Assembly (NCBI GenBank): GCA_038087875.1
Contig: JAXLNO010001453.1
Location: forward strand, 186,001-250,000
DNA length: 64,000 bases
Reading direction: 5' to 3'
Source: Malacoraja senta
Taxonomy: Eukaryota
A program made the translations under genes and the position numbers. Shown in pieces: positions 5,511 through 49,994 of this stretch (positions within the stretch are counted from its first letter, which is position 1; each line of letters opens with the position of its first letter). The notes beneath the pieces are model-generated. The model was not told the DNA's origin. It made no database searches and was given only the letters and a program-made list of their open reading frames with translations.

Positions 5511-7342
5511 TCAAGGATGTAGTTTAGGCAGGTATTGTCGCAACGTTTAAGAAATATTGCGACAGGTACATAGATAAGATATGTTAAGAGGAATATGGGC
5601 CATTCGTATGCAGGTGGGTGTGCAGATGGGATACGTTGGTCATCGCGGGCAGTATGGGCCGGAGGACTATGTTTCACGCTGTATTACACTAGAACTCTAT
5701 GCCAAGATCGAAGAACAAATCACCTTCCGCTTGTGCAAGCCACACGTTTCTGGAGTTAACATCCGAGTCTTCAACGTTACTATATCTCTCTTCCTCCTCA
5801 TTTGGAAGAAAATTCGGCATATCGACGACTGTCTTGATTATATTGCCTCTCGTGATAACGTTCAAAACTTGAAATGTCTATTAACAACATCGTTCGCTCC
5901 AGAGAAATAAAATATCCTGACCTATACAGTCTCTCTCGGAATCGAACGTCTCCAGTCCTGGCAAAAACGTTTTCATTAATACTCTGCCACTCCCCACATT
6001 AATGGTATCAATGCTAACATATTGCGATCTGAAGAACATCGCACGTGCTGTCTCGCCAACGTCCTATACCAGATGTTTGAACTCCACTTATACCCAACTG
6101 CGTGGGACTCCCGCAGTGAAATAAGGCCACACCTCATGCTGGCTGGGGGAAGAAAAAATCCTACCATCCACATTCAAATTTACTCGCATTGGTTGTAAGC
6201 AGATTGTTCATGAACAAGATGGAGAAATGGCCCTCTTTCCGTGCTGTGTAACATGCAACTACCACTTACAGTGAGAGTTCGTTCAATATACCTGCCCCGC
6301 CCACGAGGAAGAGTTGACGCTGCGTCCCTTTAAATATTTACCGTCTCATTTGGTACTTTTGCCCTCTTTTAGAGACGTATATCCGATGAACAAAATAATA
6401 TACCTCCACTGATCATCACCGTGTCTTATTTTAACCCTCCATAACTCCTCATTCTTTTGTTCGCTGCAGAGGGAAAACGCTTCTGCATTATCCTGTCCAT
6501 CTTACAATTCACTCCGCCCAACATTAGTACCAGTATTGTGAATAGAGTTGTATACTCCTTAGTTTAAATGGATCCTTAATGAATTATTTCGAAAAATAAT
6601 ATCCCTCCTCCTGTGCTTTACTGCTCTGTGAAGTTTTTTTTCTGTGAATTGCTTAGTTTGAGTGCACAAAATATGACACTTCTTTCTTAGGTCACGACTT
6701 TCTTCAGAATGATCTGTTCCCAAACATGTACCGCCGGTCAGACTCCCCTTAACCGATTCAGTCGGCTCTATCATCTTGCCCATCAACATTCTTGATATCA
6801 CCAACGGATCAATGCATTGAGATTATTTCGCCCTAATATCTGAAACAACATCAAAATCAGTTCACCTCTCGTTTTATGAAATAACACATTACTTTCAAGA
6901 TAACCTGTAGATCAAGAACATTTCTTGTCGATATTTATTTCTGGTCAGTTTCCTCGTTACACATAATATTTGCTTATTATTTACTTCAAGAAATGCCAGC
7001 AGTTGAAAGATAGTAATGCTGCTGTTGTAGCTGAATTGTATAAGATGTCGTCTAGAAGGTTGCTGTGATTGACATCATTTGGACCCTGCCCAAGAATGAT
7101 TCCATTTTCTTTTGAAAATGAGCTGCACGGGGAATCCAGGATCAAATTATTAATGGGTGCATGTTAAGTGAATGGAACCGTCTCTGGAAAATGCATTACA
7201 AATGCTACAAATAAAATACTGTATAATATCGCAGCATATGTGGATAAATGGTATATGAGATGTATTTTGCTGCATTAAAAATTTTTCTTTTTGTATTTTT
7301 AAAATTGTGTTTAATATTAATTTTATTTTTAATGTATTTCCC

Positions 7343-10300
7343 CCTAGTCCCATCTACCTGCACTCAGACCATAACCCTTCATTCCTTTCCCGTCCATATA
7401 CCCATCCAATCTATTTTTAAAGGAATACATCGAACCTGCCTCAACCACTTCCACTGGAAGCTCATTCCACACAGCTACCAATCTATGAGTAAAGAAGTTC
7501 CCCCTAATGTTACCCCTAAGCTTCTGTCCCTTAATTCTCAAGTCATGTCCCAGGCAACATTCTAGTAAATCTCCTCTGTACTCTCTCTATTTTGTTGACA
7601 TCCTTCCTATAATTAGGCGACCAAAATTGTACTCCATACACCAGAATTGGCCTCACCAATGCCTTGTACAATTTTAACATTACATCCCAACTTCTATATT
7701 CAATGCTCTGATTTATAAAGGCCAGCACACCAAAAGCTTTCTTTACCACCTGAGATTCCACCTTCAGGGAACTATGCACAGTTATTCCTAGATCCCTCTG
7801 TTCAACTGCATTCTTCAATTCGCCACCATTTACCATGTACGTCCTATTTTGATTTGTCCTGCCGTGATGTAGCACCTCACATTTGTCAGCATTAAACTCC
7901 ATCTGCCATCTTTCAGCCCAGTCTTCCAAATGGCCTAAATCTCTCTGTAGACTTTGAAAATCTACTTCATTATCCACAACACCACCTATCTTAGTGTCAT
8001 CTGCATACTTACTAATCCAATTTTCCACACCATCATCCAGATCATTGATGTACATGACAAACAACAGTGGAGCCAACTCAGACCCCTGAGGCACCCCACT
8101 AGTCACCGGCCTCCAACCTGACAAACAGCCATCCACCATTACTCTCTGGCATATCCCATTCAGCCACTGTTGAATCCATCTTGCTACTCCACCATTAATA
8201 CCCAACAATTGAATCTTCTTAACCAACCTTCCATGAGGAACCTTGTCAAAGGCCTTACTGAAGTCCATATAGACAACATCCACTGCTTTACCCACATCAA
8301 TTTCCCGAGTAACCTCTTCGAAAAATTCAAGAACATTAGTCAAGCATGACCTGCCAGGCACAAATCCATGTTGACTGTTCCTAATCAGACCCTGGTTATC
8401 CAGATGCTTATATATATTATCTTTAAGTATCCTTTCCATTAATTTGCCCACCACTGACGTCAAACTAACAGGTCTATAATTGCTAGGTTTACTCTTCGAA
8501 CCCTTTTTAAACAACGGTACGCCAATCCTCCGGCACTTTTCCCGTTTCTAATGACATTTGAAATATTTCTGTCATAGCCCCTGCTATTTCTACACTAACT
8601 TCCCTCAATGTCCTAGGGAATATCCTGTAAGGACCTGGCGACTTATCCGTTTCCATATTTTTCAAAAGTGTCCGCACCTTCTCTTCTTTGAATCTCACAG
8701 TTTCCATTGCTACTCTGCTTGTTTCCCTTACCTCACATAATTCCATATCCTTCTCCTTGGTGAATACCGAAGAAAAGAAATTGTTGAATATCTCCCCCAT
8801 CTCTTTTGGCTCTGCAGATAGCTGTCCACTCTGACTCTCTAATGGACACATTTTATTCCTTATTATCCTTTTGCTATTAATATAGCTGTAGAAACCCTTT
8901 GGATTTACTTTCACCTTACTTGCCAAAGCAACCTCATATCTTCTTTTAGCTTTTCTAATTTCTTTCTTAATATACTTTTGACATTCTTTATACTCCCCAA
9001 GCACCTCCTTTACTCCATGCTGCCTATAATTATTGTAGATCTCTCTCTTTTTCCGAACCAAGTGTCCAATTTCCCTTGAAAACCATGGCTCTTTCCAATT
9101 TTTACTATTTCCTTTCAACCGAACAGGGACATAAAGATTCTGTACTCTTAAAATGTCACCCTTAAATGTCCTCCATTTCTAGTCTACATCCTTCCCATAA
9201 AACAACATGTCCCACTTCACTCGTTTTAAATCCTTTCGCATCTCCTCAAAGTTAGCCTTTCTCCAATCAAAAATCTCAGCCCTAGGCCCAGTTCTGACCC
9301 TCTCCATAGTTGTATTGAAACTAATGGTATTGTGATCACTGGACCCGAAGTGCTCCCCGACGCATACCTCCGCCACCTGCCCTGACTCATTTCCCAACAG
9401 GAGGTCGAGCACTGCCCCTTCTCTAGTAGGCACCTCTATGTATTGCTGCAAAAAACTATCCTGCACACATTTTACAAACTCCAAACCATCCAACCCTTTT
9501 ACAGAATGTGTTTCCCGGTCTATGTGTGGACAATTGAAATCTCCCACAATCACTACCTTGTGCTTACTACTAATATCTGCTATCTCCTTACATATTTGCT
9601 CTTCCAATTCTCGCTCCCCATTTGGCGGTCTATAATACACCCCTATAAGTGTTGCTACACCTTTCCCATTTCTCAGTTCCACCCAAATAGCCTCCCTAGA
9701 CGAGCCCTCTAATCTATCCTGCCAAAGCACTGCTGTAATAACTTCCTTGACAAGCAATGCAACACCCCCACCTCTTGCCCCTCCAATTCTATCACCCCTG
9801 AAGCAACGAAATCCTGGATTATTTAGTTTCCAATCACAACCCTCCTGCAACCATGTTTCACTGGTCGCCACAACATCATACTTCCAGGTGTCAATCTAGG
9901 CTCTAAGCTCATCCACCTTTCTTATAATGCTCCTAGCATTAAAATATACACATTTAAGAAACCCATCACCACTTATTCGCTGTTTATTATCTTTTTCTTC
10001 TTTGTCCCCTACATTTTGGGTCCGAGTGCTTCCCTTCTATGCCTCCTGCCTCCCACATTTTCCACTAGCTTTCTCTATTTGAGTCCCTCCCCCCAACCGT
10101 TCTAGTTTAAAGTCTCCCCAGTAGCCTTTGCAAATCTCCCCGCCAGGATATTGGTCCCCCTCGGGTTCAAGTGCAACCCGTCCTTTCTGTACAGGTCACA
10201 CCTTCCCCAAAAGAGGTCCCAATGATCCAGAAATTTGAATCCCTGCCCGATGCACCAGTTCCTCAACCACGCAATTATCCTCCACCTCATTCCATTCCTA

Positions 10301-10433
10301 CTCTCACCGTCGCTTGGCACAGGTATTAATCCTGAGATTGTTACCTTTGCGCTCCTTCACCTTAACTCTCATCCGAACTCCCTAAATTCTCCTTTCAAGA
10401 CATCTTCTCTTTTTCTACCTATGTCGTAACATA
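7343..10433 (-). mobile_element. CR1 LINE (3' part of esterase-type ORF1 plus disrupted EN-RT ORF2), occupying the place of GPCR exon 1
   Basis: ORF1 end ...WDLFWGRCDLYRKDGLHLNPRGTNILAGRFAKATGETLN* (10102-10320). EN motifs SETWL, GDFN and SDH (9179-9871). RT motifs QHGF..GRSC, GVPQGS and YADD (7543-8514). Confidence 0.95.
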
Positions 10434-12710: not shown

Positions 12711-13137
12711 GAAAGTCGTGTATCCAATCGCAAGCTGGAGTGCTGATCGCTAGGCTCGGGAGTTTATCAATGTGTTTGGAAGGGAGTAGTGTAGAAGGCA
12801 AGTGCTCCAGCGGAGAATTGGGAATCTAACGTTCGACTCCTTCCTGCCTGGCTGTTGGAGAGACGGGTTTAGGTCCAGGACGATGGCGTCTGATGCGGAA
12901 CTGCTGCTGCAATATGCAGTCTGTGGTTCATCAAAGGCGGCTGGGGTGGGCTCACGCTACCTGCGTATACCGCTGATAGCTAATGCGCACATCTCCTTAG
13001 CACGCACTGAGGGATTGCAAGTAGAGCAGTCGTTCTCGACCAAATAAACAAAGCGTACCAAAAATTTACCCCCACCCCAAATTACCATCGCGTTTCCCTT
13101 TCATGTAACGACAGTTTCCTCTTCTCTACTCCCCCCG

Positions 13138-14050
13138 TGAACTTGTTGGCGATTGTGATACTGTCCCGCAGAAATTGTGGTCTCTCAAAATGCACCACTC
13201 GTTACCTGGTGGCCATGGCGGCGGTGGACCTCTCAGTGATTGTCTGCGAAGTGATATTACATCGGATTGCCGACGTTTGCTGGTGGCGCACATTCCTCTT
13301 CCACAATACTGTGTGCAGGTGCATTATGTTCCTCGCTCCCGCCGCCGTTGCCTGTTCGGTTTGGCTCAGGGTCGCTTTCACATTTGATCGCTTTGTGGCC
13401 ATTTCCACTCAGAATCTGAGAACCAGATACTGCACCGAAAGAACCGCGCTGGTGGTTATAGTGACCCTAACTGCGTCCTTTGTTTACAGAACGCTCCCTG
13501 GCCATTTACGTACACTTATTATCGCAGGGATCAGCAGGGTATACTGTGGGGTTGCCAAATACCATATCACTTTTATGTTCTGCCATCGTGGATAGCATTT
13601 TCCTGGACTCAACAGCTGCTAATGCCAGTCATTCCATTTTGTTTGATTATGCTTATGAACATGCTTACTGTCAGACGCATTTTAGTGGCCAGTCGTGTCC
13701 GCAGAAAACTCCGCGATCTCAGTAGCGAGGACCCCAAAATCGCAAACCGCAGACGGTCCGTAATTTTACTTGTAGCAATTTCCAGCAGCTTTATGCTGCT
13801 CTGGGGCACAACTGTAGCATATTTCGTTTTCTATCGATGTACGAACGGATTTTGGTTCAGAGGGTTGAAGAACCCATTTGCAACATTTGAACAAACTGGA
13901 ATTTTGCTACAACTGTTGAACACCTGCACAAACACGCTCATTTACAACGTGACCCAGAGGAGGTTCAGAGAGCAGCTGCTCCAGGTACTCAAATGCCCCT
14001 TCACCCTAACTGTAAGTTTAATAAAATCGAGAAAACCTGGTGTAAAATAA
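13138..14050 (+). pseudogene. GPR139/GPR142-like class A GPCR, copy 1 (exon 2 only; pseudogene)
   Basis: Homologous to 57581-58494. Acceptor AG has become CG at 13136-13137, there is a 1-nt frameshift at about 13476-13482, and exon 1 is absent upstream. Confidence 0.9.
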
Positions 14051-21592: not shown

Positions 21593-22097
21593 ATCTGAAG
21601 GCGAGTGGTCGAGACATAGGATGGCATGTCCATGCGCGTCGATTGGCTCTGTCTGCAAACTTTGTTAAGCGTGGGCAAAGTAAGGGTAAGGGCTTGCCTC
21701 CGTAGTTTATAACTCAATAAGCAAAGATTAGAGTTCTGCTGGAAATTAATTCAAACCACGCAGCCACTTTCTGCACGCTCTCTATCTGTTGTCCCTCAGA
21801 ACTCTGTCATACCATGCCCAGCTGTTGAGCAGAACAAACATGCGACATCTTGCTCGCATTGCGTTGTGCGTGACATCCGTTATTGGTAACAACGTTTATT
21901 TTTTAATGTTTTCATGTCCTTCAAGAGAGAATTGCAAATCTGTAGATTAATGACGCATGTGAACCAATCACACTTAGCCAGCATCACTAACTCCACCCCA
22001 CTATAACACTTATACTAAGGCCTATTCCCAGCAACGTCAGTCTGAGTAGCTAGGATGAACTGACTACACCTTGTCTTTAAATGCTGCCAAGTTACAG

Positions 22098-22772
22098 TGC
22101 TGATTATATATGTGTTTAAATCATATACTCTCAGGTGTCTGTCTACATGGTGTCAGAAGTGGCATTAATCCCAAAGAACTGAACACTGCCATTAAGCGCC
22201 CACACCATCCCACGAAGACAGTAGAGAATGTTGCGGCAAAGATCGGAACGGTCACCCTATTTTCTGTCCGAGATGCAAAGAAACGGTCATACGACAGATC
22301 CAGCAGACCACTCCAGCCTCTACTGCCGGGCCAGGTCGTCCGTCTATGAACTTCAACTGGACATTCTCGTCTGGGCTCTGTTGTACGCCCGACTGATGAG
22401 CCGCGATCGTACCTTGTGGACTGTGAGGGAGCGGTATACCGGAGAAGTCGACAACACCTGCTTGCTGTGAAGGAGCCCCGACCACCGCTTGCTGATCCCT
22501 ATGCTCCGCCGCTCCAGTTCCAGCCGCCTTTCGCAATGTCTCACGCCCGTGGCCGCATGCCTTGCACGCCCCCCTCCCACGTCCCTCGGTCTCCACTAAC
22601 CACGGGGTTACACATACAGCATGTTTCCCCTCTCGGTCACCACAAGCCTCTCCCGTGCGATTTTCACCTTCAGCCTCTCCGCCTAATCCTTCAGTGGAGG
22701 GAGGGGATGGTTGGGTCTGATGCTGACTAAAGATGTGTTTAAATTATATACTGTCTCAGGTGTCTGTCTACA
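22098..22772 (+). mobile_element. Internally deleted Gypsy remnant, duplicate copy
   Basis: LTR blocks 22098-22147 and 22721-22772; PBS 22148-22162; PPT 22696-22707. Confidence 0.85.
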
Positions 22773-25700
22773 AAATCGAAGCGGTCGGGTTAAACATAGA
22801 AACATAAAAACATAGAAAATATGTGCAGGAATAGGCCATTCTGCCCTTCGAGCCTGAAACGCTATTCAATATGATCATGGCTGATCATCCAACTCAGTAT
22901 CCTGTACCTGCTTTCTCTCCATACCCCCTGATCCCATTAGCCACAAGGGCCACATCTAAATCCCTCTAACTAAATGTTGTGGTCTAGCATAACGGGTCCA
23001 CAAATCAAGGAGGCACAAGGGAAGATACAAAACAAAATACACAAGGTATGCGTAGTCCTTGCCATCAGTAAATGTCGTTTGGCATGTAAATGGCCATCGG
23101 GATGTTCCCGTTTTCAGTTTTAGAGATACAGCACAGAAACAGGCCCTTCGGCCCACCAATTTCACGTTGACCAGCGATCCCCGTACACTAACACTATGCT
23201 ACACATTGGACACTTTAGTTTCATTCTTGGAACACAGATTCTTAGATTCATGGAACACATCGCAGAACAGCGTATATTGACGTCGCAACACGTCTCATGC
23301 TTCCAGAAACCCACTGCACCGACGAGGTCCTCTCTCCAGCAGCCGGTCTCCTTACCGGCCCTATGTCGGCCTCCTCCCATTGTGGGCGGGCGAACCGGGA
23401 CTTCCGGCTGAGTTCCCGCGCGAGGCGCTTGTGCTCCGTCCTCGGTCTGCGGCTGGCGAACCAGGCTGGTCCTCAGTTATTGGCGATTGAGGTCTGGTCT
23501 AGCCAGCGATACTCTGTCCGCGTTGAGCTGCCTACTGCTGGGTGTGGCCGCGGCTAGATCACATCTGGCCGCGCTTTGGCCACATTCGAGACACATGCAG
23601 GTTTGCCGTTTAATTGGTCTCTATAATTGTTCCTGTGTGCAGGAGAGAGGCTGTGTGCGGGTACTTGCTGGTCGGCGTGGACGTGATGGAGCGAAGGGAC
23701 TGTTTTCACTCTGTAAACTAAACTAAAGAAAACACAAGCAATGTCTTATAGTTCACTCTATAATTCGTTCTCTTCAGAAACGGCACGAAGTTAGATTGTT
23801 TTCCTTTCAATGCTACATTATCGTGTAACTGAAATGTAACTAGCAGATGAAAGTGTTTTCACCGGAAGTAAAGATAATGAAATGTTTCTGGCTTCTTCTT
23901 CGCATTTCTTTATTCTTCCATGTACTTTTTAGATAGAGAGAACAAAAGATGAAAAACTCTTTTGTTATTAACATAAATCCTATTAAATCGTAGACAAAAA
24001 TATCAGCGAGATTGATTCGAATTGATCGGAGAGCACCTTGGTTCGCATTGAATAATTACAATTGTCGAAACAGAATCTCTTGTTTGTTTCATATTGCTCA
24101 TGTTGACAGTTGTTCAAAGAAGAAGAAAGATTCACTTGGTTAACTTGGTCAACACATTCCTATGTATTCATAATTTGAATGTTTAGTAATAAATTGATCT
24201 TTGGCTAAATCGACTAAACCTGTTGTTTTTATTCCTGTGTTGAAAGAAGTTGCGCAACTTCTGGGGGCAGATAAATCTTCGGTAACCCGTCATGGTCAAT
24301 GTGTATCTGCAACATCAGAGGTGCAGCTGTAGAAACGCTGCAGAATATGACAGTGCCCCAATGCCTTAATTCATCGAATCTGCTTTTTAACATTAGTACC
24401 GAACTCTCTCTTGAGTACATCAATTTTATTTTATTGCTAATATTATGCAATCTCCGGTCAGTCACCAATCAAATACACTTTACTGATTGCACCTGGCGAA
24501 TTCTATTTTGAAGAAAAATAAACAGCCTTTATCATTAACCTTCTTTTTCGCCTTCTAACTGCTGCTTTTCCGCTGGAGATTTCTTTTATTTTCTGTGCAA
24601 TTGTACATGTTCAGTATCTGCGGTATTTTGTATTTTATTAAACTACGCCATATTGCAGCTGGTCCAAATTGGGCGCATCTTCTGCTGCATATGCCATACA
24701 TGCAGGGTACAGCCATTGCCTGAAAATTAAAAAAAAAACTTCGTTTAACAGCAGGCACAATCACTGTTCACAATCACTGCACCTCTTCGGACTTCCTGTG
24801 GCCATTGCGAAAATAATACCAAACTTCCTAAACCTGGACCAGACTCTGCCTGTTTTGGAACTTTGAAAAGATTTTGTTGCGTGCTATCCAGTCAGCAGAA
24901 AGACAATACTTGTTGTAATGGAGCCATTTGTAGTATTATAGATACATGATAATGGAACAACGTTTATTGCAAGGTGAAGCCAGCATAGCTCAATCAAACA
25001 TAGTGCTAGGGTCAGCATTTAGGTAGATCAGTTGAGGAACAGATTTTTAGTTCACAATGTCGGTGTCGACCCGATACCAAGAGCAGCTCCGATCTACCTG
25101 CGCGTTACTGATATCCCTCCATTCCCTGCAGATTCATATCTCCATCCAAAACTATTTTAAATTCCACTATCGTATCCGCCTTAACCATCAGCCCTGGCAG
25201 CGCCTTACATGCACTCGCCACACTTTGTGTAAAACATTGCGCCGCACATGTTCGTTACATTTTGCCCTTCGTACCATAAAGCTGTGACCTCTTGTATATA
25301 ATGTTTTACATTCTGGGAAAATCAAAGTTCCGCCAGTCTACCGGGTCTCATAAGTTTACATAACTCGACCAGGTCTCCCCGCAATCTCCGACGTTCCAGA
25401 GGGATAAAAATCCAAATATGACCAATCTCTCCCTGTACCTAATACCCGCCAATCCAGCCACCGTGCGCAACTGGACAACTGCGGCTGTGAAACACGCTGT
25501 TCTTATTACGTTTCTCCATCTTGCTGAATTGACAAAGTCATTCACTAATGGCTTTGCTGCCGGTCACCAGTTTCTGCAGCGTGCTAGTTTAGTTAGTTTA
25601 CATTAGTTTGGTGTAGTTAAAGTAAACTAAACAAATACAAGTATAAATATAAAGGTGTATAGTAAAAGCGTCTTTAGGTATGTGATGAGGAAAAAATAGT

Positions 25701-28700
25701 TAAGACCATAGTTGGACCCTTGAAGACTGAACAGGGTCAATTTATTACGGGGTACAAGGAAATGGCAAATGAGTTGGACAGGTACTTTGGATCCGTCTTC
25801 ACTAAGGAGGACAGAAACAATCTTCCAGATGTACTAGCCGGATGATCTGGGGTGACGGAGTAACTGAAGGAAATCGACAATTGGCAGGAAATGGTGTTGG
25901 GTAGACTGATGCGATTGAAGGCTGATAAATCCCCAGCGCCTGATGATCTGCATCCCAGGGTAGATAAGGAAGTGACTCTAGAAATCGTGGACGCATTGGT
26001 GATCATTTTCCAATGTTCTATAGATTCAGGATAGGTTCCTGTGGATTGGAGTGTAGCTGATGTTATCCCACTTTTTAAGAAAGGCGGGAGAGAGAAAACA
26101 GTGAATTATAGATCAGTTAGCTTGACATCGGTGGTAGGGAAGATGCTGGAGTCAACAATGTAAGATGAAATGGCGGCTCATTTGGAGAGAAGCAACAGGA
26201 TCGGTCCGAATCAGCATGGATTTACGAAGGGGAAATCATGCTTGACTAATCTTCTGGAATTTTTTGAGGATTTAACTAGGAGAATGGACAAGGGAAAGCC
26301 AGAGGATGAAGTGCACCTGGACATTCAGAAAGCATTTGATAAAGTCCCACATTGGAGATTAGTGGGCAAAATTAGGGCACATGGTATTGGGGGTAGAGTG
26401 CTGACATGGATAGCTAATTTGCTCATGTTACTTTGATTCCCTTCATCCAAATCATTTATGTATATTGTAAATAGCTGCGGTCCCAGCACCGACCTTGCGG
26501 TACCCAACTTTTCACTGCCTGCCATTCCGAATGGGACCCGTTAATCCCTACTCTTTGTATCCTGTCTGCCAAACAATTTTTCATCCATGTCAGCGCTCTA
26601 CCACCAATACCATGTGGCCTAATTTTGCCCACTAATCTCCTGTGGGACCTTATCAAATGCTTTCTGAATGACCAGGACACTACATCCACTGGCTCTACCT
26701 TGTCCATTTTCCTACTTCCATCCTTAAAAAAATTCCAGAAGATTAGTCAAGCATTCCATGCTGACTCGGACCGATCCTGTTACTGCTAACCAAATGTGCC
26801 GCTATTCTTTTATAATTGATTCCAGCATCTACCCAACCACCGATGTCAGGCAAACTGGTCTATAATTCCCTGTTTTCTCTCTGCCGCATTTCTTAGAAAG
26901 TGGGATAACATTAGCTACCCTCCAATCCACAGGAACTGATCCTGAATCTAGAGAACATTGGAAAATTATCACCAATGCATCCACAATTTCTAAGCCACTT
27001 CCTTAAGTACCCTGGGATGCAGACTATCAGGCCTTGGGGATTTATCAGCCTTCAGTCCCATCAGTCTACAGAACACCATTTCATGCTTAATGTGGATTTC
27101 CTTCAGTTCATTTGTCACCCCAGATCCCCTGGCCACATCAAGAACATTGTTTGTGTCCTCCATAGTGAAGACGGATCCAAAGTACCTGTTCAACCCATCT
27201 GCCATTTCCTTGTTCCCAATAATAAATTCACTTTTTTCAATCTTCATGGTCCAATCTTCAAGGATGTAGTTTAGGCAGGTATTGTCGCAACGTTTAAGAA
27301 ATATTGCGACAGGTACATAGATAAGATATGTTAAGAGGAATATGGGCCATTCGTATGCAGGTGGGTGTGCAGATGGGATACGTTGGTCATCGCGGGCAGT
27401 ATGGGCCGGAGGACTATGTTTCACGCTGTATTACACTAGAACTCTATGCCAAGATCGAAGAACAAATCACCTTCCGCTTTTGCAAGCCACACGTTTCTGG
27501 AGTTAACATCCGAGTCTTCAACGTTACTATATCTCTCTTCCTCCTCATTTGGAAGAAAATACGGCATATCGACGACTGTCTTGATTATATTGCCTCTCGT
27601 GATAACGTTCAAAACTTGAAATGTCTATTCACAACATCGTTCGCTCCAGAGAAATAAAATATCCTGCCCTATACAGTCTCTCTCGGAATTGAACGTCTCC
27701 AGTCCTGGCAAAAACGTTTTCATTAATACTCTGCCACTCCCCACATTAATGGTATCAATGCTAACATATTGCGATCTGAAGAACATCGCACGTGCTGTCT
27801 CGCCAACGTCCTATACCAGATGTTTGAACTCCACTTATACCCAACTGCGTGGGACTCCCGCAGTGAAATAAGGCCACACCTCATGCTGGCTGAGGGAAGA
27901 AAAAACCCTACCATCCACATTCAAATTTACTCGCATTGGTTGTAAGCAGATTGTTCATGAACAAGATGGAGAAATGGCCCTCTTTCCGTGCTGTGTAACA
28001 TGCAACTACCACTTACAGTGAGAGTTCGTTCAATATACCTGCCCCGCCCGCGAGGAAGAGTTGACGCTGCGTCCCTTTAAACATTTACCGTCTCATTTGG
28101 TACTTTTGCCCTCTTTTAGAGACGTATATCCGAGGAACAAAATAATATACCTCCACTGATCATCACCGTGTCTTATTTTAACCCTCCATAACTCCTCATT
28201 GTTTTGTTCGCTGCAGAGGGAAAACGCTTCTGCATTATCCTGTCCATCTTACAATTCACTCCGCCCAATATTAGTACCAGTATTGTGAATAGAGTTGTAT
28301 ACTCCATAGTTTAAATGGATCCTTAATTAATTATTTCGAAAAATAATATCCCTCCTCCTGTGCTGTACTGCTCTGTGAAGTTTTTTTTCTGTGAATTGCA
28401 TAGTTTGAGTGCACAAAACATGACACTTCTTTCTTAGGACACGACTTTCTTCAGAATGATCTATTCCCAAACATGTACCGCCGGTCAGACTCCCCTTAAC
28501 CGATTCAGTCGGCTCTATCATCTTGCACATCAACATTCTTGATATCTCCAACGGATCAATGCATTGAGATTATTTCGCCCTAATATCTGAAACAACATCA
28601 AAATCAGTTCACCTCTCGTTTTATGAAATAACACATTTCTTTCAAGATAACCTGTAGATCAAGAACATTTCTTGTCGATATTTATTTCTGGTCAGTTTCC

Positions 28701-29092
28701 TCGTTACACATAATATTTGCATATTATTTACTTCAAGAAGTGCCAGCAGTTGAAAGATAGTAATGCTGCTGTTGTAGCTGAATTGTATAAGATGTCGTCT
28801 AGAAGGTTGCTGTGATTGACATCATTTGGACCCTGCCCAAGAATGATTCCCTTTTCTTTTGAAAAGGAGCTGCACGGGGAATCCAGGATCAAATTATTAA
28901 TGGGTGCATGTTAAGTGAATGGAACGGTCTCTGGAAAATGCATTACAAATGCTACAAATAAAATACTGTATTATATAGCAGCATATGTGGATAAATGGTA
29001 TATGAGATGTATTTTGGTGCATAAAATTTTTTAATTTTTTAATTTTTAATTTTTTTTTTAAATATTAATTTTATTTTTAATTTACTTCCCCC

Positions 29093-32000
29093 TAGTCCTA
29101 TCTACCTGCACTCAGACCACAATCCTTCATTCCTTTCCCTTCCATATACCCATCCAATCTATTTTTAAAGGATAACATCGAACCTGCCTCCACCACTTCC
29201 ACTGGAAGTTCATTCCACACAGCTACCAATCTATGAGTAAAGAAGTTCCCCCTAATGTTACCCCTAAACTTCTGTCCCTTAATTCTCAAGTCATGTTCCC
29301 TTGTTTGAATCTTCTCTACTCTCAATGGGAAAAGCTTATCCACGTCCACTCTGTCTAACGCGCTCATAATTTTAAAGACCTCTATCAAGTCCCCTCTTAA
29401 CTTGTTCAACCTTTCTCTGTAACGTAGTTGCTGAAACCCAGGCAACATTCTAGTAAATCTCCTCTGTACTCTCTCTATTTTGTTGACATCCTTCCTATAA
29501 TTAGGCGACCAAAATTGTACTCCATACACCAGAATTGGCCTCACCAATGCCTTGTACAATTTTAACATTACATCCCAACTTCTATATTCAATGCTCTGAT
29601 TTATAAAGGCCAGCACACCACAAGCTTTCTTTACCACCCTATCTACGTGAGATTCCACCTTCAGGGAACTATAGCAAGATAGCAATTAATGATTATGATA
29701 TAACAGATAGCAATTAATGATTATGATATAGTTGGGATCACGGAGACATGGCTCCAGGGTGACCAAGGCTGGGAGCTGAACATCCAGGGATATTCAATAT
29801 TCTGGAGGGATAGAGAGAAAGGAAAAGGAGGTGGGGTAGCGTTGCTGGTTAGAGAGGAGATTAACGCAGTGGAAAGGAAGGACATCAGCTTGGAGGATGT
29901 GGAATCGGTATGGGTAGAGCTACGAAATACTAAGGGGCAGAAAACGCTGGTGGGTGTTGTGTACAGGCCACCTAGCAGTAGTAGTGAAGTTGGGGATGGC
30001 ATCAAACAGGAAATTAGAAATGCGTGCAACAAAGGCAAAACAGTTATAATGGGTGACTTCAATCTACATATAGATTGGGTGAATCAAATTGGCAGGGGTG
30101 CTGAGGAAGAGGATTTCTTGGAATGTATGAGGGATAGTTATCTAAACCAACATGTAGAGGAACCAACGAGAGAGCAGGCTATTCTAGACTGGGTATTGAG
30201 TAATGAGGAAGGGTTAGTTAGCAGACTTGTTGTGCGTGCCCCCTTGGGCAAGAGTGACCATAATATGGTTGAGTTCTTCATTAGGATGGAGAGTGACATT
30301 GTTAATTCAGAAACAACGGTTCTGAACTTAAAGAAAGGTAACTTTGAGGGTATGAGACGTGAATTGGCCAAGATTGACTGGCAATTAGTTCTAAAAGGGT
30401 TGACGGTGGATATGCAATGGAAGGCATTTAAAGACTGCATGGATGAACTACAAAAATTGTTCATCCCAGTTTGGCAAAAGAATAAATCAGGGAAGGTAGT
30501 GCATCCGTGGATAACAAGGGAAATCAGGGATAGTATCAAAGCAAAAGATGATGCGTACAAATTAGCCAGAAAAAGCAGCATACCAGAGGACTGGGAGAAA
30601 TTCAGAGACCAGCAGAGGAGGACAAAGGGCTTAATTAGGAAAGGGAAAATAGATTATGAAAGGAAACTGGCAGGGAACATAAAAACTGACTGCAAAAGTT
30701 TTTATAGATATGTGAAGAGAAAGAGATTAGTTAAAACAAATGTAGGTCCCTTGCAGTCAGAAACAGGTGAATTGATCATGGGGAACAAGGATATGGCGGA
30801 CCAATTGAATAACTACTTTGGTTCCGTCTTCACTAAGGAAGACATAAATAATCTGCCGGAAATAGCAGGGGGCCGCGGGTCAAAGGAGATGGAGGAACTG
30901 AGTGAAATCCAGGTTAGTCGGGAAGTGGTGTTGGGTAAATTGAATGGATTAAAGGCCGATAAATCACCAGGGCCAGATAGGCTGCATCCCAGAGTACTTA
31001 AGGAAGTAGCTCCAGAAATAGTGGATGCATTAGTGATAATTTTTCAAAATTCTTTAAATTCTGGAGTAGTTCCTGAGGATTGGAGGGTAGCAAACGTAAC
31101 CCCACTTTTTAAGAAGGGAGGGAGAGAGAAAACGGGGAATTACAGACCAGTTAGTCTAACATCGGTAGTGGGGAAACTGCTAGAGTCAGTTATTAAAGAT
31201 GGGATAGCAGCACATTTGGAAAGTGGTGAAATCATTCGACAAAGTCAGCATGGATTTACGAAAGGTAAATCGTGTCTGACGAATCTTATAGAATTTTTCG
31301 AGGATGTAACTAGTAGAGTGGATAGGGGAGAACCAGTGGATGTGTTGTATCTGGACTTTCAGAAGGCTTTCGACAAGGTACCACATAAGAGATTAGGATA
31401 CAAACTTAAATCACACGGTATTGGGGGTTCAGTATTGATGTGGATAGAGAACTGGCTGGCAAACAGGAAGCAAAGAGTAGGAGTAAACGGGTCCTTTTCA
31501 CAATGGCAGGCAGTGACTAGTGGGGTACCGCAAGGCTCAGTGCTGGGACCCCAGCTATTTACAATTTATATTAATGATCTGGACGAGGGAATTGAAAGCA
31601 ACATCTCCAAGTTTGCGGATGACACTAAGCTGGGGGGCAGTGTTAGCTGTGAAAATGATGCTAGGAGACTGCAAGGTGACTTGGATAGGCTGGGTGAGTG
31701 GGCAAATGTTTGGCAGATGCAGTATAATGTGGATAAATGTGAGGTTATCCACTTTGGTGGCAAAAAAGGGAAGGCAGACTATTATCTAAATGGTGGCCGA
31801 TTAGGAAATGGGGAGGTGCAGCGAGACCTGGGTGTCATGGTACACCAGTCATTGAAAGTAGGCATGCAGGGGCAGCAGGCAGTGAAGAAAGCGAATGGTA
31901 TGTTGGCCTTCATAGCAAGAGGATTTGAGTATAGGAGCAGGGAGGTTCTACTGCAGTTGTACAGGGTCTTGGTGAGACCACACCTGGAGTATTGCGTACA

Positions 32001-35000
32001 GTTTTGGTCTCCAAATCTGAGGAAGGACATTATAGCCATAGAGGGAGTGCAGAGAAGGTTCACCAGACTGATTCCTGGGATGTCAGGACTTTCATATGAA
32101 GAAAGACTGGATAGACTTGGCTTATACTCGCTAGAATTTAGGAGATTGAGAGGGGATCTTATAGAAACGTACAAAATTCTTATGGGGTTGGACAGGCTAG
32201 ATGCAGGAAGATTGTTCCCGATGTTGGGGAAGTCCAGGACAAGGGGTCACAGCTTAAGGATAAGGGGGAAATCCTTTAAGACCGAGATGAGGAAAAACTT
32301 TTTCACACAGAGAGTGGTGAATCTCTGGAACTCTCTGCCACAGAGGGTAGTTGACGCCAGTTCATTGGCTATATTTAAGAGGGAGTTAGATGTGGCCCTT
32401 GTGGCTAAAGGGATCAGGGGGTATGGAGAGAAGGCAGGTACGGGATACTGAGTTGGATGATCAGCCATGATCATATTGAATGGCGGTGCAGGCTCGAAGG
32501 GCCGAATGGCCTACTCCTGCACCTATTTTCTATGTTTCTATGTTTCTATGTTTCTATGCACAGTTATTCCTAGATCCCTCTGTTCAACTGCATTCCTCAA
32601 TTCGCTACCATTTACCATGTACGTCCTATTTTGATTTGTCCTGCCGTGATGCAGCACCTCACATTTGTCAGCATTAAACTCCATCTGCCATCTTTCAGCC
32701 CAGTCTTCCAAATGGCCTAAATCTCTCTGTAGACTTTGAAAATCTACTTCATTATCCACAACACCACCTATCTTAGTATCATCTGCATACTTACTAATCC
32801 AATTTTCCACACCATAGATGTACATGACAAACAACAGTGGACCCAACTCAGACCCCTGAGGCACCCCACTAGTCACCGGCCTCCAACCTGACAAACAGCC
32901 ATCCACCATTACTCTCTGGCATCTCCCATTCAGCCACTGTTGAATCCATCTTGCCACTCCACCATTAATACCCAACAATTGAATCTTCTTAACCAACCTT
33001 CCATGAGGAACCTTGCCAAAGGCCTTACTGAATTCCATATAGACAACATCCACTGCTTTACCCTCATCAATTTCCCTAGTAACCTCTTCGAAAAATTCAA
33101 CAAGATTAGTCAAGCATGACCTTCCAGGCACAAATCCATGTTGACTGTTCCTAATCAGACCCTGGTTATCCAGATGCTTATATATATTATCTTTAAGTAT
33201 CCTTTCTATTAATTTGCCCACCACTGACGTCAAACTAACAGGTCTATAATTGCTAGGTTTACTCTTCGAACCCTTTTTAAACAACGGAACAACATGCGCA
33301 GTACGCCAATCCTCCGGCACTTTTCCCGTTTCTAATGACATTTGAAATATTTCTGTCATAGCCCCTGCTATTTCTACACTAACTTCCCTCAATGTCCTAG
33401 GGAATATCCTGTCAGGACCTGGCGACTTATCCGTTTTCATATTTTTCAAAAGTGTCCGCACCTCCTCTTCTTTGAATCTCACAGTTTCCATTGATACTCT
33501 GCTTGTTTCCCTTACCTCACATAATTCCATATCCTTCTCCTTGGTGAATACCGAAGAAAAGAAATTGTTCAATATCTCCCCCATCTCTTTTGGCTCTGCA
33601 GATAGCTGTCCACTCTGACTCTCTAATGGACACATTTTATTCCTTATTATCCCTTTGCTATTAATATATCTGTAGAAACCCTTTCGATTTACTTTCACCT
33701 TACTTGCCAAAGCAACCTCATATCTTCTTTTAGCTTTTCTTGTTTCTTTCTTAATATACTTTTTACATTCTTTATACTCCCCAAGCGCCTCATTTACTCC
33801 ATTCTGCCTATAATTATTGTAGATCTCTCTCTTTTTCCGAACCAAGTGTCCAATTTCCCTTGAAAACCATGGATCTTTCCAATTTTTACTATTTCCTTTC
33901 AACCGAACAGGTACATAAAGATTCTGTACTCCTAAAATTTCACCCTTAAATGTCCTCCATTTCTCTTCTACATCCTTCCCATAAAACAACATGTCCCACT
34001 TCACTCCTTTTAAATCCTTTCGCATCTCCTCAAAGTTAGCCTTTCTCCAATCAAAAATCTCAATCCTAGGTCCAGTTCTGACCCTCTCCATAATTGTATT
34101 GAAACTAATGGTATTGTGATCACTGGACCGGAAGTGCTCCCCGACGCATACCTCTGCCACCTGCCCTGACTCATTTCCTAACAGGAGGTCGAGCACTGCC
34201 CGTTCTCTAGTAGGTACCTCTATGTATTGCTGCAAAAAAGTATCCTGCACACATTTTACAAACTCCAAACCATCCAGCCCTTTTACAGAATGTGTTTCCC
34301 AGTCTATGTGTGGAAAATTGAAATCTCCCACAATCACTACCTTGTGCTTACTACTAATATCTGCCATCTCCTTACATATTTGCTCTTCCAATTCTCGCTC
34401 CCCATTTGGCGGTCTATAATACACCCCTATAAGTGTTGCTACACCTTTCCCATTTCTCAGTTCCACCCAAATAGCCTCCCTAGACGAGCCCTCTAATCTA
34501 TCCTGCCAAAGCACTGCTGTAATAACTTCCTTGACAAGCAATGCAACACCCCCACCTCTTGCCCCTCCAATTCTGTCACTCCTGAAGCAACGAAATCCTG
34601 GAATATTTAGTTTCCAATCACAGCCCTCCTGCAACCATGTTTCACTGATCGCCACAACATCATACTTCCAGGTGTCAATCCAGGCTCTAAGCTCATCCAC
34701 CTTTCTTACAATGCTCCTAGCATTAAAATATACACATTTAAGAAACCCATCACCACTTATTCTCTGTTTATTATCTTTTTCTTCTTTCTCCCCTACATTT
34801 TGGGTCCGAGTGCTTCCCTTCTCTGCCTCCTGCCTCCCACATTTTCCACTAGCTCTATTTGAGTCCCTCCCCCCAACCGTTCTAGTTTAAAGTCTCCCCA
34901 GTAGCCTTTGCAAATCTGCCCGCCAGGATATTGGTCCCCCTCGGGTTCAAGTGCAACCCGTCCTTTCTGTACAGGTCACACCTTCCCCAAAAGAGGTCCC

Positions 35001-35213
35001 AATGATCCAGAAATTTGAATCCCTGCCCGCTGCACCAGTTCCTCAGCCACGCATTTATCCCCCGCCTCATTCCATTCCTACTCTCACCGTCGCGTGGCAC
35101 AGGTAGTAATCCTGAGATTGTTACCTTTGCGGTCCTTCTCCTTAACTCTCCTCCTAACTCCCTAAATTCTCCTTTCAGGACCTCTTCTCTTTTTCTACCT
35201 ATGTCGTAACATA
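29093..35213 (-). mobile_element. CR1 LINE (ORF1 3' part plus ORF2), split by a nested CR1
   Basis: ORF 32538-34700 (720 aa, EN+RT) and ORF 29098-29685 rejoin in frame as ...DLGITVH|SSLKVES... once 29673-32557 is removed. Same insertion as 7343-10433. Confidence 0.95.
29673..32553 (+). mobile_element. Young 5'-truncated CR1 LINE with uninterrupted ORF2 and (GTTTCTAT)n tail
   Basis: Open frame 29704-32451 with ITETW, GDFN, SDH, QHGF, PQGS and FADD motifs. CTAT at 29669-29672 and 32554-32557; empty site actatgcacag at about 7771-7781. Confidence 0.97.
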
Positions 35214-35679
35214 TGTTATCACTAATTCTCACTGATTAAGGTATGTTCATTAGAAAGTCGTGTATCCAATCGCAAGCTGGAGTGCTGATCGCTAGGCTCG
35301 GGAGTTTATCAATGTGTTTGGAAGGGAGTAGTGTAGACGGCAAGTGCTCCAGCGGAGAAATGGGAATCTAACGTTCGACTCCTTCCTGCCTGGCTGTTGG
35401 AGAGACGGGTTTAGGTCCAGGACGATGGCGTCTGATGCGGAACTGCTGCTGCAATATGCAGTCTGCGGTTCATCAAAGGCGGCTGGGGAGGGCTCACGCT
35501 ACCTGCGTATACCGCTGATAGCTAATGCGCACATCTCCTTAGCACGCACTGAGGGATTGCAAGTAGCGCAGTCGTTTTCGACCAAATAAACAAAGCGTAC
35601 CAAAAATTTACCCCCACCCCAAATTAGCATCGCGTTTCCCTTTCATGTAACGAGAGTTTCCTCTTTTCTACTCCCCCAG

Positions 35680-36568
35680 TGAACTTGTTGGCGATTGTGA
35701 TCCTGTCCCGCAGAAATTGTGGTCTCTCAAAATGCACCACTCGTTACCTGGTGGCCATGGCGGCGGTGGACCTCTCAGTGATTGGCTGCGAAGTGATATT
35801 ACATCGGATTGCCGACGTTTACTGGTGGCGCACATTCTTATTCCACAATACTGTGTGCAGGTGCATTATGTTCCTCGCTCCCGCCGCCGTTGCCTGTTCG
35901 GTTTGGCTCACGGTCGCTTTCACATTTGATCGCTTTGTGGCCATTTCCACTCAGAATCTGAGAACCAGATACTGCACCGAAAGAACCGCGGTGGTGGTTA
36001 TAGTGACCCTAACTGCGTTGTTCTGTTTACAGAACGCTCCCTGGCCGTTTGCGTACACTTATTATCTCAGAGATCAGCAGGGTATACAGTGGGGTTGCCG
36101 AATACCATATCACTTTTATGTCCTGCCCTATCAACAGCTGCTAATCCCAGTCATTCCATTTTGTTTGATTATGCTGATGAACGTGCTCACAGTCAGACGC
36201 ATTTTAGTGGCCAGTCGTGTCCGCAGAAAACTCCGCGATCTCAGTAGTGAGGACCCCGAGATCCCAAACCGCAGACGGTCCGTAATTTTACTCCTTGCAA
36301 TTTCCAGCTGTTTTATGCTGCTCTGGGGCACAAATGTGGCATTTTTCGTTTTCTATCGATGTACGCATTTTGGTTCAGGGGGTTGAAGAACCGATTTGCA
36401 ACATTTGAACAAACTGGAATTATGCTACAACTGTTGAACACCTGCACAAACACGCTCATTTCCACCGTGACCCAGAGGAGGTTCAGAGAGCAGCTGCTCC
36501 AGGTACTCAAATGCCCCTTCACCCTAACTGTAAGCTTATTAAAATCGAGAAAACATGGCGTAAAATAA
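35680..36568 (+). pseudogene. GPR139/GPR142-like GPCR, copy 2 (exon 2 only; pseudogene)
   Basis: Acceptor intact (35678-35679) but no exon 1. Net 21-nt in-frame loss (SWIAFSWT replaced by Y, about 36128) and a 4-nt frameshifting deletion at about 36365. Confidence 0.9.
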
Positions 36569-37689
36569 AATTACAATACTAATCCCTTCCAGAGTGCAAA
36601 AACTAGGTAATGAAGCAGTTTCCTCTAAAATCTTTCCTCATCAATTTTCATAAAAATAGCTGGGAAATACAATCTGAACCCGTCCCCTGCACTGCAATGC
36701 ATATTTGGCCATCTATTTAACATGCGAAACGGGCGCGTTGTTCAAAATGTCCAGTGGGGAGGGCGGCCCTGTGGAACCGAGTGCTATGTTGTACTGGAGC
36801 AGACCTCCAATGATTCCGGAATTGAGCCTCGCCGTTAACTGTTTTCACCTTCCTTTGAATCCAGCGGCAACGTCTCCAGCACGCAATGAAAACAGACATA
36901 GAGTTATGGTCCTAAACAGTGCATGCTCCATTGCTCTACAATTCTTTAAGACGTTCCATGGTTACGTATGTAAGTGCCCAGTGTACAAATGTATTTAATA
37001 AAACTCTTGCTGCAACATTTACGTTAATGAGAGTTCGATTTTATTTTTGCTTCTCGCACTGAATGTAACGCCTCATTGCTTCTTACAGAGGCTTTCGGTT
37101 TTCATTACAATTATTAACTCTGCACCAGATGCACCAAAGGTAGTGGGTGCTATTCATACAAGTTGGCATTACTAATAATATTTTTAATTCAAGCAGAGTG
37201 TAACAAGCGAGTGTCCAGTAGAGGGCGGTAAAGTGAGTACGTTCACCTGTGTGGTAAAGAGATTCTGAATCGATTTGCATTAATGTCCCACCTCCATTGA
37301 AGCTGCGCCGACGCTGGAGATCTGCCAATTTGAGATTCGAGGGAGTGCTCAGAGAGTAGGATTTAACTCCGCCTGCAGGGCAAGGAAATGTGAGAAATCC
37401 ATTAATTTATTTCCTCCACCGATGGCGGCTGAGATTTTGTATAGCTCTAAATTTGGGTTGAGTACTCTCTCCCCACATCCTCCGCTCCCGACGCGGTAAC
37501 GATTACATTTTTACATATTCTGATTGACATTTTCCCCTCGAGGCCGAAAACACCTTCACTGAACATTTTATGCTTTATTTCTTGACTTATTAACGATTAA
37601 AGGTAAGTAAGTTTAAAAACATCAAAAGGCTTTGAATTTAAAACGACCAGCTGCAACTGATGACGTCACAATGGCTCGGCTAGCAGTGG

Positions 37690-38470: not shown

Positions 38471-40346
38471 ATAGTAATATAGAAACATAGAAAATAGGTG
38501 GAGGAGGAGGCCATTCGGCCCTTCGAGCCATCACCGCCATTCGTTGTGTTCATGGCTGATCGTCCCCTATCAATAACCCGTGCCTGCCTTCTCCCCATAT
38601 CCCTTGACTCCATTAGCCCCTAGAGCTCTATCCAACTCTCTATTAAATCCATCCAGTGATTTGGCCTCCACTGCCCTCTGTGGCAGGGAATTCAATAAAT
38701 TCACAACTCTCTGGGTGAAAACGGTTTTTCTCACCTCAGTCTTAAATGACCTCCCCTTTATTCTGAGACTGTGGCCCCTGGTTCTGGACTCGCCCAACAT
38801 TGGTAATATTTTTCCTGCATCTAGCTTGTCCAGTCCTTTCATAATTTTACATGTTTCTATAAGATGCCGCCTCATCCTTCGAAACTCCAGTGAATACAAG
38901 CCTAGTCTTTTCAATCTTTCCTCATATAACAGTCCCGCCATCCCAGGGATCAATCTGGTGAACCTACGCTGCACTGCCTCAATCACAAGGATGTCCTTCC
39001 TCAAATTTGGAGACCAAAACTGTGCACAATACTCCAGATGTGGTCTCACCAGACCCTATACAACTGCAGAAGAACCTCTTTACTCCTATACAGAAATCCT
39101 CTTGTTATGAATGCCAACATTCCATTAGCTTTCTTCACTGCCTGCTGTACCTGCACGTCAACTTTCAGTGACCGGTGCACAAGGACGCCCAGGTCTTGCT
39201 GTACCACCCTCTTACCTAACCTAACCCCATTGAGATGATAATCTGCCTCCTTGTTTTTGCCGCCAAAGTGGATAACATCACATTTATCTATATTATACTG
39301 CATCTGCCACGCCTCTGCCCACTCACTCAACCTGTCCATGTCACCCTGCATCCTCCTAACATCCTCTTTATAGTTCACACTGCCAACCAGCTTTGTGTCA
39401 TCCGCAAACTTACTACGTTGCTCCTAATTCCGTCTTCCAAATCATTAATATATATGGTAAACAGTTGCGGCCCCAACACCGAGTCTTGCCGCACTCCACT
39501 CGCCACTGCCTGCCATTATGAAAAGGACCCGGTCACTCCTACTCTTTGCTTCCGGTCTGCCAACCAATTTTCTATCCATGTCAACACCCTACCCCCAAAC
39601 CATGTGCTCTAATCTTAGTCACCAGTCTCCCATGCGGGGCCGTATCAAAGGCTTTCTGAAAGTCTAGATACACTACATCCAGTTGGATCCCTTCATCCAT
39701 TTTACTTGCCACATCCTCAAAAAATTCCAGAAGATTAGTCAAGCATGATTTCCCTTTCATAAATCTATTTTCACTAGGACTAATCCTTTTACTGCTATCC
39801 AAATGCCCCATTATTACCTCTTTAATAATTGACTCCAGCATCTTTCCCACCACCGAAGTCAGGCTAACTGGTCTGTAATTCCCCGTATTCTCTCTCGCTC
39901 TTTTCTTGAAAAGTGGGATAACATTAGCTATCCTCCAATCCACAGGAACTGATCCTGAATCTATTGATCATTGGAAAATGATCACCAATGCGTCCACTAT
40001 TTCTAGAGCCACCTCCCTGAGGACCCTGGGAAGCAGACCATCAGGCCCAGGGGATTTATCTTCCTTCAGTCCCATTAGCCAACCCAATACTATTTCACGC
40101 CTAATGAATATTTCTTTCAGTTGCTCTACCCCCTTAGATCCTCTGTCCTCCAGTACATCTGGGAGATTGTTTCTGTCTTCCTTAGTAAAGACAAATCCAA
40201 AGTACCTGTTCAACTCTTCTTCCATTTCCTTGTGCCCATAATAATTTCACCCGTGTCTGCCTTCAAGGGACCCACATTGGACTTTGCTACTATTTTCCCC
40301 TTAACATATCTTAAGAAGCTTTTTTTACTGTCCTTCTGTATATTCC

Positions 40347-41070: not shown

Positions 41071-42235
41071 GGCTACTCTTTGCTGTGTTATACATCTTTT
41101 CTTTTAGTTATATTCTATCTCTAACTTCTTTTGTCAACCACGGTTGCCTCCTAACCCCCTTAGAATCTTTCTGCCTTTATGGAATGAAATGATCCTGCGT
41201 CTTCCGGATTATGCCCAGAAATTCCTACCATTGCTGTTCCACCGTCCTTCCTGCTAGGATCCCCATCCTGTCTACTTTGGTCAGCTCTCCTCTCATGCCT
41301 TCATAGTCCCCTTTGTTCAACTGCATCACTGCCACTTCCGATTTTACGTTCTCCTTCTCAAATTGCAGATTAAAACTAATCATATTATGATCACTACCAC
41401 CAAGCGGTTCCTTTACCTCGAGTTCTCTTATCATAACTGGTGCACTGGACAGCACTAAATCCAGAATTGCCTTTTCTCTGGTGGGCTCCATTACAAGCTG
41501 CTCTAAGAATCCATCTCGGAGGCATTCTACAAACATCAATTTCTTGGGGTCCTGAACCAACCTGATTTTACCAGTCTACCTGCATATTGAAATCCCCCAT
41601 CACCACAGTGGAATTACCTTTGTTACATGCCAGTTTTAACTCCTGCTGCAACTTACACCCTGCATCCGGGCTACTATTTGGGGATCTGTAAATAACACCA
41701 ATTCGTGTCTTCTTGCCTTTGCAATTCATCAACTCAATCCACAGTGACTCTACCTCGTCAGTCTATATGTCTTCCCTCGCAAGGGTCTGAATTCCCTCCC
41801 TCACCAGCAAAGCTACCCCCCTCCTCTGCCCACCTGCTACCCCCCTCCTCTGCCCACCTGCCTGTCCTTTCTATAGGATGTATAACCCTGAATATTAAGT
41901 TCCCAGGCCCTATCCTCCTGCAGCCATGTCTCAATAATCCCCACAATGTCATATCTACCAACCCCTAACTGAGCCTCAAGCTCATCTACTGTACTTCTTA
42001 TACTTCGCGCATTCATATACAATACTTTTAATTCCTTACGCATCTCACCTTTCACATCGATCCCTATTACAATTGGCCATACTCTCCTATCCCTTTGTGA
42101 GCTTTCTTTCCCGTTAATTCTGGGGTCATTAACCATCCCTTTACTCTCTTTCCCTTTAACTCCATCCTCGACTATCCCATTTGACACCCCACCCATCTTA
42201 TTCAGTTTAAAACCACCCGTGTAGCAGTGGCAAAC

Positions 42236-43970: not shown

Positions 43971-43997
<27 letters not shown>
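42236..43997 (+). mobile_element. 5'-truncated Rex1/Babar-type LINE with open RT frame and (AATC)n tail
   Basis: Frame open 42237-43814 with KAVGPD, DYRPVALTS, DPLQFAY, DFSSAFNTI, GAPQGTVL and FSDD motifs. Tail from 43971. CAAAC at both junctions (42231-42235, 43998-44002). Confidence 0.92.
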
Positions 43998-44001
<4 letters not shown>

Positions 44002-49881: not shown

Positions 49882-49994
49882 CTGTAAAATAAATATATTG
49901 AGATAGTAACAGACACCGGAGTCTCGTGAGATTGCACTTCTCAAAACCTGAATGAGAAAGGCGAGGGGAACTGAAAAATTTGATCCCGAATTAC

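Follow-up and report, generated by a model that had tools for sequence, protein, structure and literature searches.

The CR1 element and its ORF1/ORF2 junction

The window, i.e. the whole stretch of 64,000 nucleotides that was analysed, carries on its minus strand a 5′-truncated, dead copy of a CR1 LINE that belongs to a family referred to here as family A (Table 1). The family-A ORF1 matches the SGNH/GDSL esterase domain PF13472 with 55.6 bits (cut-off 32.9), and ORF2 scores above the cut-offs for PF03372 and PF14529 (APE endonuclease) and for PF00078 (reverse transcriptase, RT). The element is thus an esterase-type CR1 LINE with the esterase in ORF1 and APE and RT in ORF2. The CR1 label itself is provisional and is based on ORF2 motifs and on the similarity of ORF1 to turtle, lizard and shark elements; the closest named ORF1 proteins stem from a skate and are 82–85% identical.

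Table 1. Features of the CR1 junctions in the window (coordinates of the window)
Feature	Position	Strand	Evidence and remarks
Family-A CR1 copy holding the junction	7335..10425	-	96% identity to an unbroken family-A copy over 10425-7549, 95% over 7551-7335
ORF1 3′ end (SGNH/GDSL esterase domain, ...DGLHLNPRG...GETLN, then stop)	10102..10425	-	Translation; only the last ~105 codons are kept
Slippery heptamer T TTA AAC in ORF1 phase	10105..10111	-	Sequence read; conservation at the nucleotide level
ORF1 stop TAG directly 3′ of the heptamer	10102..10104	-	Sequence; TAG, TGA or TAA depending on the family
G-rich tract GGTTGGGGGGAGGG, candidate 3′ stimulator	10085..10098	-	Begins 6 nt past the heptamer
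ORF2 -1 frame linker (FKLERLGGG...GDGF), no ATG	9959..10111	-	Translation; copy-specific TAG at 10039-10037
ORF2 APE-type endonuclease, start LKCVYFNARS	9179..9958	-	Translation; PF03372 and PF14529; premature TAG at 9898-9896
Same junction in the segmental duplicate	34882..34891	-	Heptamer 34891-34885 followed by TAG; 4-nt gap 20 nt further on
Divergent family-B CR1 junction, T TTA AAC TGA	42202..42211	-	-1 frame leads into the endonuclease

The first-pass annotation of this DNA had described an ORF1 that ends GAG ACT TTA AAC TAG, a G-rich tract about 6 nt downstream of the heptamer, and a -1 frame that reaches the endonuclease start without an ATG, all of which was confirmed by the sequence. 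The motif LKCVYFNARS begins at 9958, 153 nt beyond the heptamer, and the -1 frame at the junction translates as FKLERLGGGTQIEKASGKCGRQEA*KGS...GDGFLKCVYFNARS, with a single TAG on the way to the motif. A second junction at 34891 had been regarded as a sister copy; it indeed carries GAG at the site of this TAG as well as a 4-nt gap, but it is a segmental duplicate and not an independent copy. Since both copies share the same element start position (10425 and 35205) and lie inside a 96%-identical duplicated block, they are one 5′-truncated insertion, dead in both places. The 4-nt deletion, which had been called private, is common to near-identical copies elsewhere, and so is the TAG at 10039-10037. 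The proposed open ancestral linker was borne out, with GAG at the TAG site in 32 of 40 full-length family-A linkers, TAG in five and other codons in three.

Slippery heptamers are common: the generic pattern X XXY YYZ is matched 473 times in the window (238 + 235) and TTTAAAC 15 times. The evidence therefore lies in the phase and the conservation of the heptamer, not in its mere presence.

Positions 1-30000 compared to 21864-37300 and 54900-62900 revealed tandem segmental duplications with 92–98% identity, and near-identical copies recur on contigs C1453, C3819, C41 and C25. The duplications include a gene that we take from its translations to be GPCR-like (13011-14050, 35628-36386 and 57529-58494). 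The sister family-A copy is interrupted by a 5′-truncated, family-E-like CR1 on the plus strand (29704-32549), in which an ORF2 remnant of 915 open codons is retained, and continues at 29672-29083. On the minus strand, an unrelated insertion with an RT (42225-43814, plus strand) interrupts a family-B CR1 (38666-45197) close to the end of its ORF1. At the junction of this family-B element (42211), codon 6 is an in-frame ATG instead of the GGG of other family-B copies. Finally, an ORF at 49553-49990 (minus strand; ...VTLTCNY...LLWYRQ...DSAVYYCAL) presumably resembles an immunoglobulin or T-cell-receptor V segment.

Conservation of the heptamer at the nucleotide level

Junctions were collected from the own genome (1.94 Gb) and from metagenome contigs, which provide the DNA evidence across species and whose CR1 elements we assume to be bird- or reptile-like. 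They were anchored by tblastn without the last four ORF1 residues, i.e. independently of the motif; rows anchored on the truncated protein P0116 were spurious and were excluded. Among the 172 non-identical junctions, 157 contain TTTAAAC, and the 15 other rows comprise three displaced junctions, one with a one-base offset in which the motif is present, and 11 single-copy variants. In 200 kb of unselected own-genome sequence, all four junctions encountered (4/4) carry the motif.

Within the own genome, ORF1 ends GTT TTA AAC TGA in families B and C (linkers of 185 and 239 nt), TCT TTA AAC TAA in family D (188 nt), GAT TTA AAC TAA in family E (191 nt) and GGT TTA AAC TAA in family F, and family A′ has a linker of 323 nt. 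Further own-genome searches with proteins P0013 and P0094 returned only families already seen, and those with window positions 32100-32520 and with P0019 at E 1e-120 gave no matches. The metagenome elements are far removed from these families, with a DNA identity of just 31–44% over the 120 nt upstream. Their ORF1 end was matched in 14 of 53 loci. Three of the 14 end too early, L163 is frameshifted, and the junction is visible in the other ten. Eight of these ten read T TTA AAC-stop (one of them off by one base); the two contrary rows are L184, which has TTTAAAC followed by TGC in place of the stop, and L154, which has TTTTAAC. No relatives were found in viral contigs or prokaryote genome contigs.

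For a comparison between lineages, one natural copy each was taken from five own-genome and six metagenome lineages, leaving out L148, L150, L154, L184, L185 and broken singletons. All 11 end NNT TTA AAC-stop, with seven different residues at codon -3 (V, G, T, C, S, A, D) and three different stops (TAG, TGA, TAA). Synonymous variants that would break the heptamer, which the first-pass annotation had named as a test, are used by no lineage. A single codon is kept in just 1/28 conserved upstream control columns, and an invariant third base was found in 0/53. In the same segments TTA accounts for 15/138 Leu codons, AAC for 21/49 and T-ending codons for a fraction of 0.30, which gives a background of 0.014 per independent lineage; as the lineages are related, 11/11 does not equal 11 independent trials, but the control columns share the same history. 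Judged by these comparisons, the heptamer is conserved at the nucleotide level beyond the amino-acid need.

Reading frame and start codons of ORF2

The register of ORF2 was analysed in family A at several levels. The sequence TTTAAACTAG occurs in 30/30 family-A loci fetched by DNA similarity (30 of 40 scored), a sample biased towards the query. Among loci fetched by the ORF1 protein alone (30 of 150 listed), ORF2 follows in the -1 register in 23/30, and none has a Met in the part of the frame that is open ahead of the endonuclease motif. The 52 non-identical short-linker family-A copies include 41 in the -1 register; 34 of the 41 are open, and all 34 open linkers lack a Met. Seven family-A copies were analysed whole; in one of them, 986 codons starting at the heptamer and including the RT motif are free of stops. 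The first ORF2 Met is residue 269 in the six of these seven that are open far enough, including the unbroken one, and the NARS motif lies at residue 58, so that an AUG-started family-A ORF2 protein would miss most or all of the endonuclease. At the sequence level, all three refutation tests, i.e. register, in-frame AUG and synonymous heptamer variants, thus turned out favourable for family A and support the earlier frameshifting interpretation.

The same register holds across the families. Nine different linker lengths (104, 146, 158, 185, 188, 191, 239, 257 and 323 nt) are all 2 mod 3, and the 692 linker codons of 11 copies contain no stop in the -1 frame compared to 63 in the 0 frame and 59 in the +1 frame. 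The open -1 stretch upstream of the heptamer contains a Met in 0/11 lineages and is only one to two codons long in three of them, so that translation must enter ORF2 at the heptamer or directly behind it and not further 5′. In addition, the linkers are mosaic (L254-L268, L073-L089, L214-L253): families A′, C and E share the 3′ half of the linker and the endonuclease start, while their ORF1s differ. This suggests that ORF1s have been swapped via recombination within the linker, with the -1 register kept. In L194 (family D), a 63-nt tandem duplication lies inside the linker and likewise keeps the frame. Closely spaced family-B ORF1 pieces in L066-L071 (G000:C25:2069925-2087771) apparently form a tandem array of element fragments.

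The first-pass statement that ORF2 has no AUG holds for family A; elsewhere, methionines occur in the linkers (codon 64 in A′, 26 in B, 36 in C and 40 in D), and in several families an AUG overlaps or closely follows the stop. Such an in-frame AUG was found in 7 of 15 lineage copies, overlapping the stop (UAAUG) in family E and L177 and following it after 2 nt in L141, L143, L150, L151 and L185; the motif profile shared by all 15 of these copies is true by construction, because they were picked by that pattern, and is not counted as evidence. In family E, a Met at codon 4 (UAAUG) is present in 21/21 open linkers. An AUG that overlaps or adjoins the ORF1 stop, as in SART1, is thus absent in family A and present in family E and some lineages.

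These start codons speak for termination–reinitiation, the most serious rival of frameshifting. Here ribosomes would restart in the -1 frame just behind the ORF1 stop, using an AUG, as in SART1, or a near-cognate codon; the motif would aid the restart, and a free ORF2 protein would result. Near-cognate codons are also at hand: most family-A copies carry TTG as codon 6, and CTG overlaps the stop in families B and C. Moreover, the -1 register and the open linker are predicted by reinitiation too, and SART1 and L1 provide precedents in passages of PMC3708506, PMC2881922 and PMC5009743. However, families A, A′, B, C, D and F as well as lineages L149 and L152 have no AUG near the stop, and the first 12 codons of family D and L149 offer none of the listed near-cognate codons either. 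Reinitiation also leaves unexplained why an in-phase X XXY YYZ heptamer is invariant while the start codon varies, and why GN or KN can replace the terminal LN (see below). We therefore regard it as an unlikely general explanation, although some lineages may use it in addition to frameshifting.

A start within the linker, at an internal AUG or non-AUG codon, appears very improbable, as does a separate ORF2 mRNA made by splicing or from an internal start, with the motif as an RNA-processing signal. The linker methionines in A′, B, C and D would be compatible with such a start, and CTAG in the TAG families is a possible splice acceptor. Yet no stop interrupts the -1 frame ahead of those methionines, every change in linker length keeps the frame, and the AG is missing in the TAA and TGA families. 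For family A no RNA data set was listed, but 4468 polyA reads from a related organism, about 6% of one sequencing run, were compared: none of the joints listed has GT..AG ends, and no start peak was seen near the junction. This is weak evidence, as these reads come from many decayed copies and both strands.

C-terminal ends of ORF1 proteins

Among ORF1 proteins with a normal C-terminal end, 66 of 72 end in LN; they stem from sharks, rays, coelacanth, frogs, turtles, lizards and a snake. Residues that have no NNU codon are found in 2/76 proteins at position -3 compared to 35/76 at position -4, a bias that the position within a helix may also shape. In the esterase structure model, LN closes the last helix (292-310). 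That ORF1 simply needs a C-terminal Leu-Asn, with the heptamer as a by-product of protein constraint and shared descent, would fit this helix and the high frequency of LN but is hardly credible, given that codon choice is fixed just here, that a codon whose residue varies freely nevertheless keeps its third base, and that the last residue has a pLDDT of only 34.

Ends other than LN were found among more distant proteins. C-terminal ends were measurable in 98 of 150 profile hits, with 41 LN, 11 GN, three KN and 43 otherwise; these last 43 fit no heptamer at the very end. Gln precedes GN in 9/11 proteins and precedes LN in 0/41, a pattern that would result from the codons CAG GGA AAC (heptamer G GGA AAC) in the former and NNU UUA AAC (U UUA AAC) in the latter. 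At the protein level, the GN and KN ends thus fit other slippery heptamers. In eight further proteins, KN occurs at position +28 and the protein continues past it. Between +23 and +31, a range chosen after seeing the data, a slip-compatible tripeptide is present in 37/57 non-LN proteins compared to 25% of control windows.

A search for naturally fused longer proteins gave two matches, both gene models. Two stingray models run from ORF1 via ...GFKL... into the endonuclease in the same layout, which may reflect annotation repair or copy-specific indels, and they were not counted. Four CR1 ORF1 proteins carry misleading names (P0027, P0077, P0031 and P0121, named after a bacterium, a frog parasite, a ribosomal protein and an oxidase), probably due to contamination or gene-model fusion.

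A short G-run as candidate stimulator

U_UUA_AAC is the heptamer of the coronavirus 1a/1b frameshift, and the site in the window had been called coronavirus-type. This holds for the heptamer, whereas no stable or conserved stem was found and the G-quadruplex remains putative. GGGG is present within +6 to +15 in 164/172 junctions but in only 9.7% of 14,746 control windows, and the G-run ranks in the top 0.1–2.2% of G4Hunter windows. A two-tier quadruplex was folded by ViennaRNA in just 4 of 15 copies. A 3′ stimulator would be expected 5–9 nt downstream; in the 15 copies selected by that pattern, the first base of the long G-run lies at +8 to +12, which equals or exceeds the usual spacer. In the same number of copies, no hairpin was better than those of 200 shuffles each (z between -1.3 and +1.3), and consensus folding of 13 copies, one row of which was offset by 16 nt, yielded 0 consensus pairs; the programs used do not model pseudoknots directly. 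An Rfam search up to E 5 gave no frameshift family and one chance snoRNA match, and when the G-tract was scanned for duplexes with other parts of the element in seven copies, no partner at a shared place emerged.

Passages of PMC3919603 describe frameshift reporters with U_UUA_AAC, in which three-tier G-quadruplexes 6–8 nt behind UUUAAAC lead to up to about 7% -1 frameshifting. The CR1 G-tract is shorter than the three-tier quadruplexes described there.

Proposed mechanism and comparison with known systems

Taken together, we consider it likely that -1 programmed frameshifting at U_UUA_AAC yields an ORF1–ORF2 fusion in CR1. A minority of ribosomes would slip back by one base at the heptamer before reaching the ORF1 stop, the tRNA-Leu (UUA) and tRNA-Asn (AAC) presumably re-pairing in tandem on UUU and AAA, and would continue through the linker into endonuclease and RT. 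The predicted transframe product reads ...GETLN-LERLGGG... or ...ETLK-LER.... Most ribosomes would stop and release the ORF1 protein, resulting in a high ratio of ORF1 to ORF2 protein as for Gag and Gag-Pol, and the variable linker of 35–108 codons would flexibly tether the esterase to the endonuclease. Pausing of the ribosome may be caused by the adjacent stop together with the G-run, as a weak quadruplex or a bound protein, and not by a pseudoknot. The junction design is real and general and very probably functional in active elements, even though the copy in the window is dead.

A broader proposal is that esterase-type CR1 elements, which dominate among the retrotransposons of most vertebrates, have expressed their RT as a Gag-Pol-like fusion by -1 frameshifting since before the shark–tetrapod split, using heptamers that can replace one another (U UUA AAC, G GGA AAC and A AAA AAC) in distant relatives and a short natural G-run as stimulator, with neither hairpin nor pseudoknot. 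We put this forward tentatively, as quite possible but somewhat less probable than its opposite.

Canonical vertebrate CR1 elements of type IVB likewise have an ORF1 with zinc-finger/coiled-coil and SGNH esterase and an ORF2 with APE and RT, according to portions of PMC4120745 and PMC13343379. Compared to the coronavirus 1a/1b signal, CR1 has the same heptamer in the same phase and the polymerase ORF in the -1 frame, but instead of a pseudoknot or stable stem it offers a short G-run and an adjacent stop, and the host of the signal is a non-LTR retrotransposon.

Among APE-type non-LTR elements, a figure legend in the review PMC5911963 states that Dictyostelium TRE5-A and TRE3-A need a -1 frameshift for ORF2, so that the idea already has a precedent among non-LTR elements; compared to CR1, clade and host differ and ORF1 is unrelated. 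In SART1 (UAAUG coupling) and L1 (AUG-independent ORF2 translation), the RNA is likewise bicistronic and ORF2 depends on ORF1 translation, and CR1 family E shares the UAAUG. However, those elements produce a separate ORF2 protein by reinitiation, whereas CR1 family A has no AUG and an invariant slip site.

Parts of PMC3894237, PMC3708506 and PMC5009743 treat the way in which LINEs translate ORF2 from an RNA with two genes as an open question, with reinitiation shown for L1 and SART1. The 2016 frameshifting review treats L1 ORF2 as a case of unusual initiation, and within 300,000 characters of its text the term CR1 does not occur. Similarly, the word frameshift does not occur in the main text of PMC4120745 and of the 2026 vertebrate CR1 survey PMC13343379, and the portions cited above do not deal with ORF2 translation. 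No description of CR1 frameshifting was found in the open literature that was searched, and an earlier mention is possible.

If frameshifting is indeed used, the commonest LINE of birds, reptiles and sharks would have a retrovirus-like strategy, and a tethered esterase–endonuclease–RT protein would be predicted. It would explain the absence of a reliable CR1 ORF2 start codon for annotation, and CR1 would provide a natural test case of G-run-driven frameshifting.
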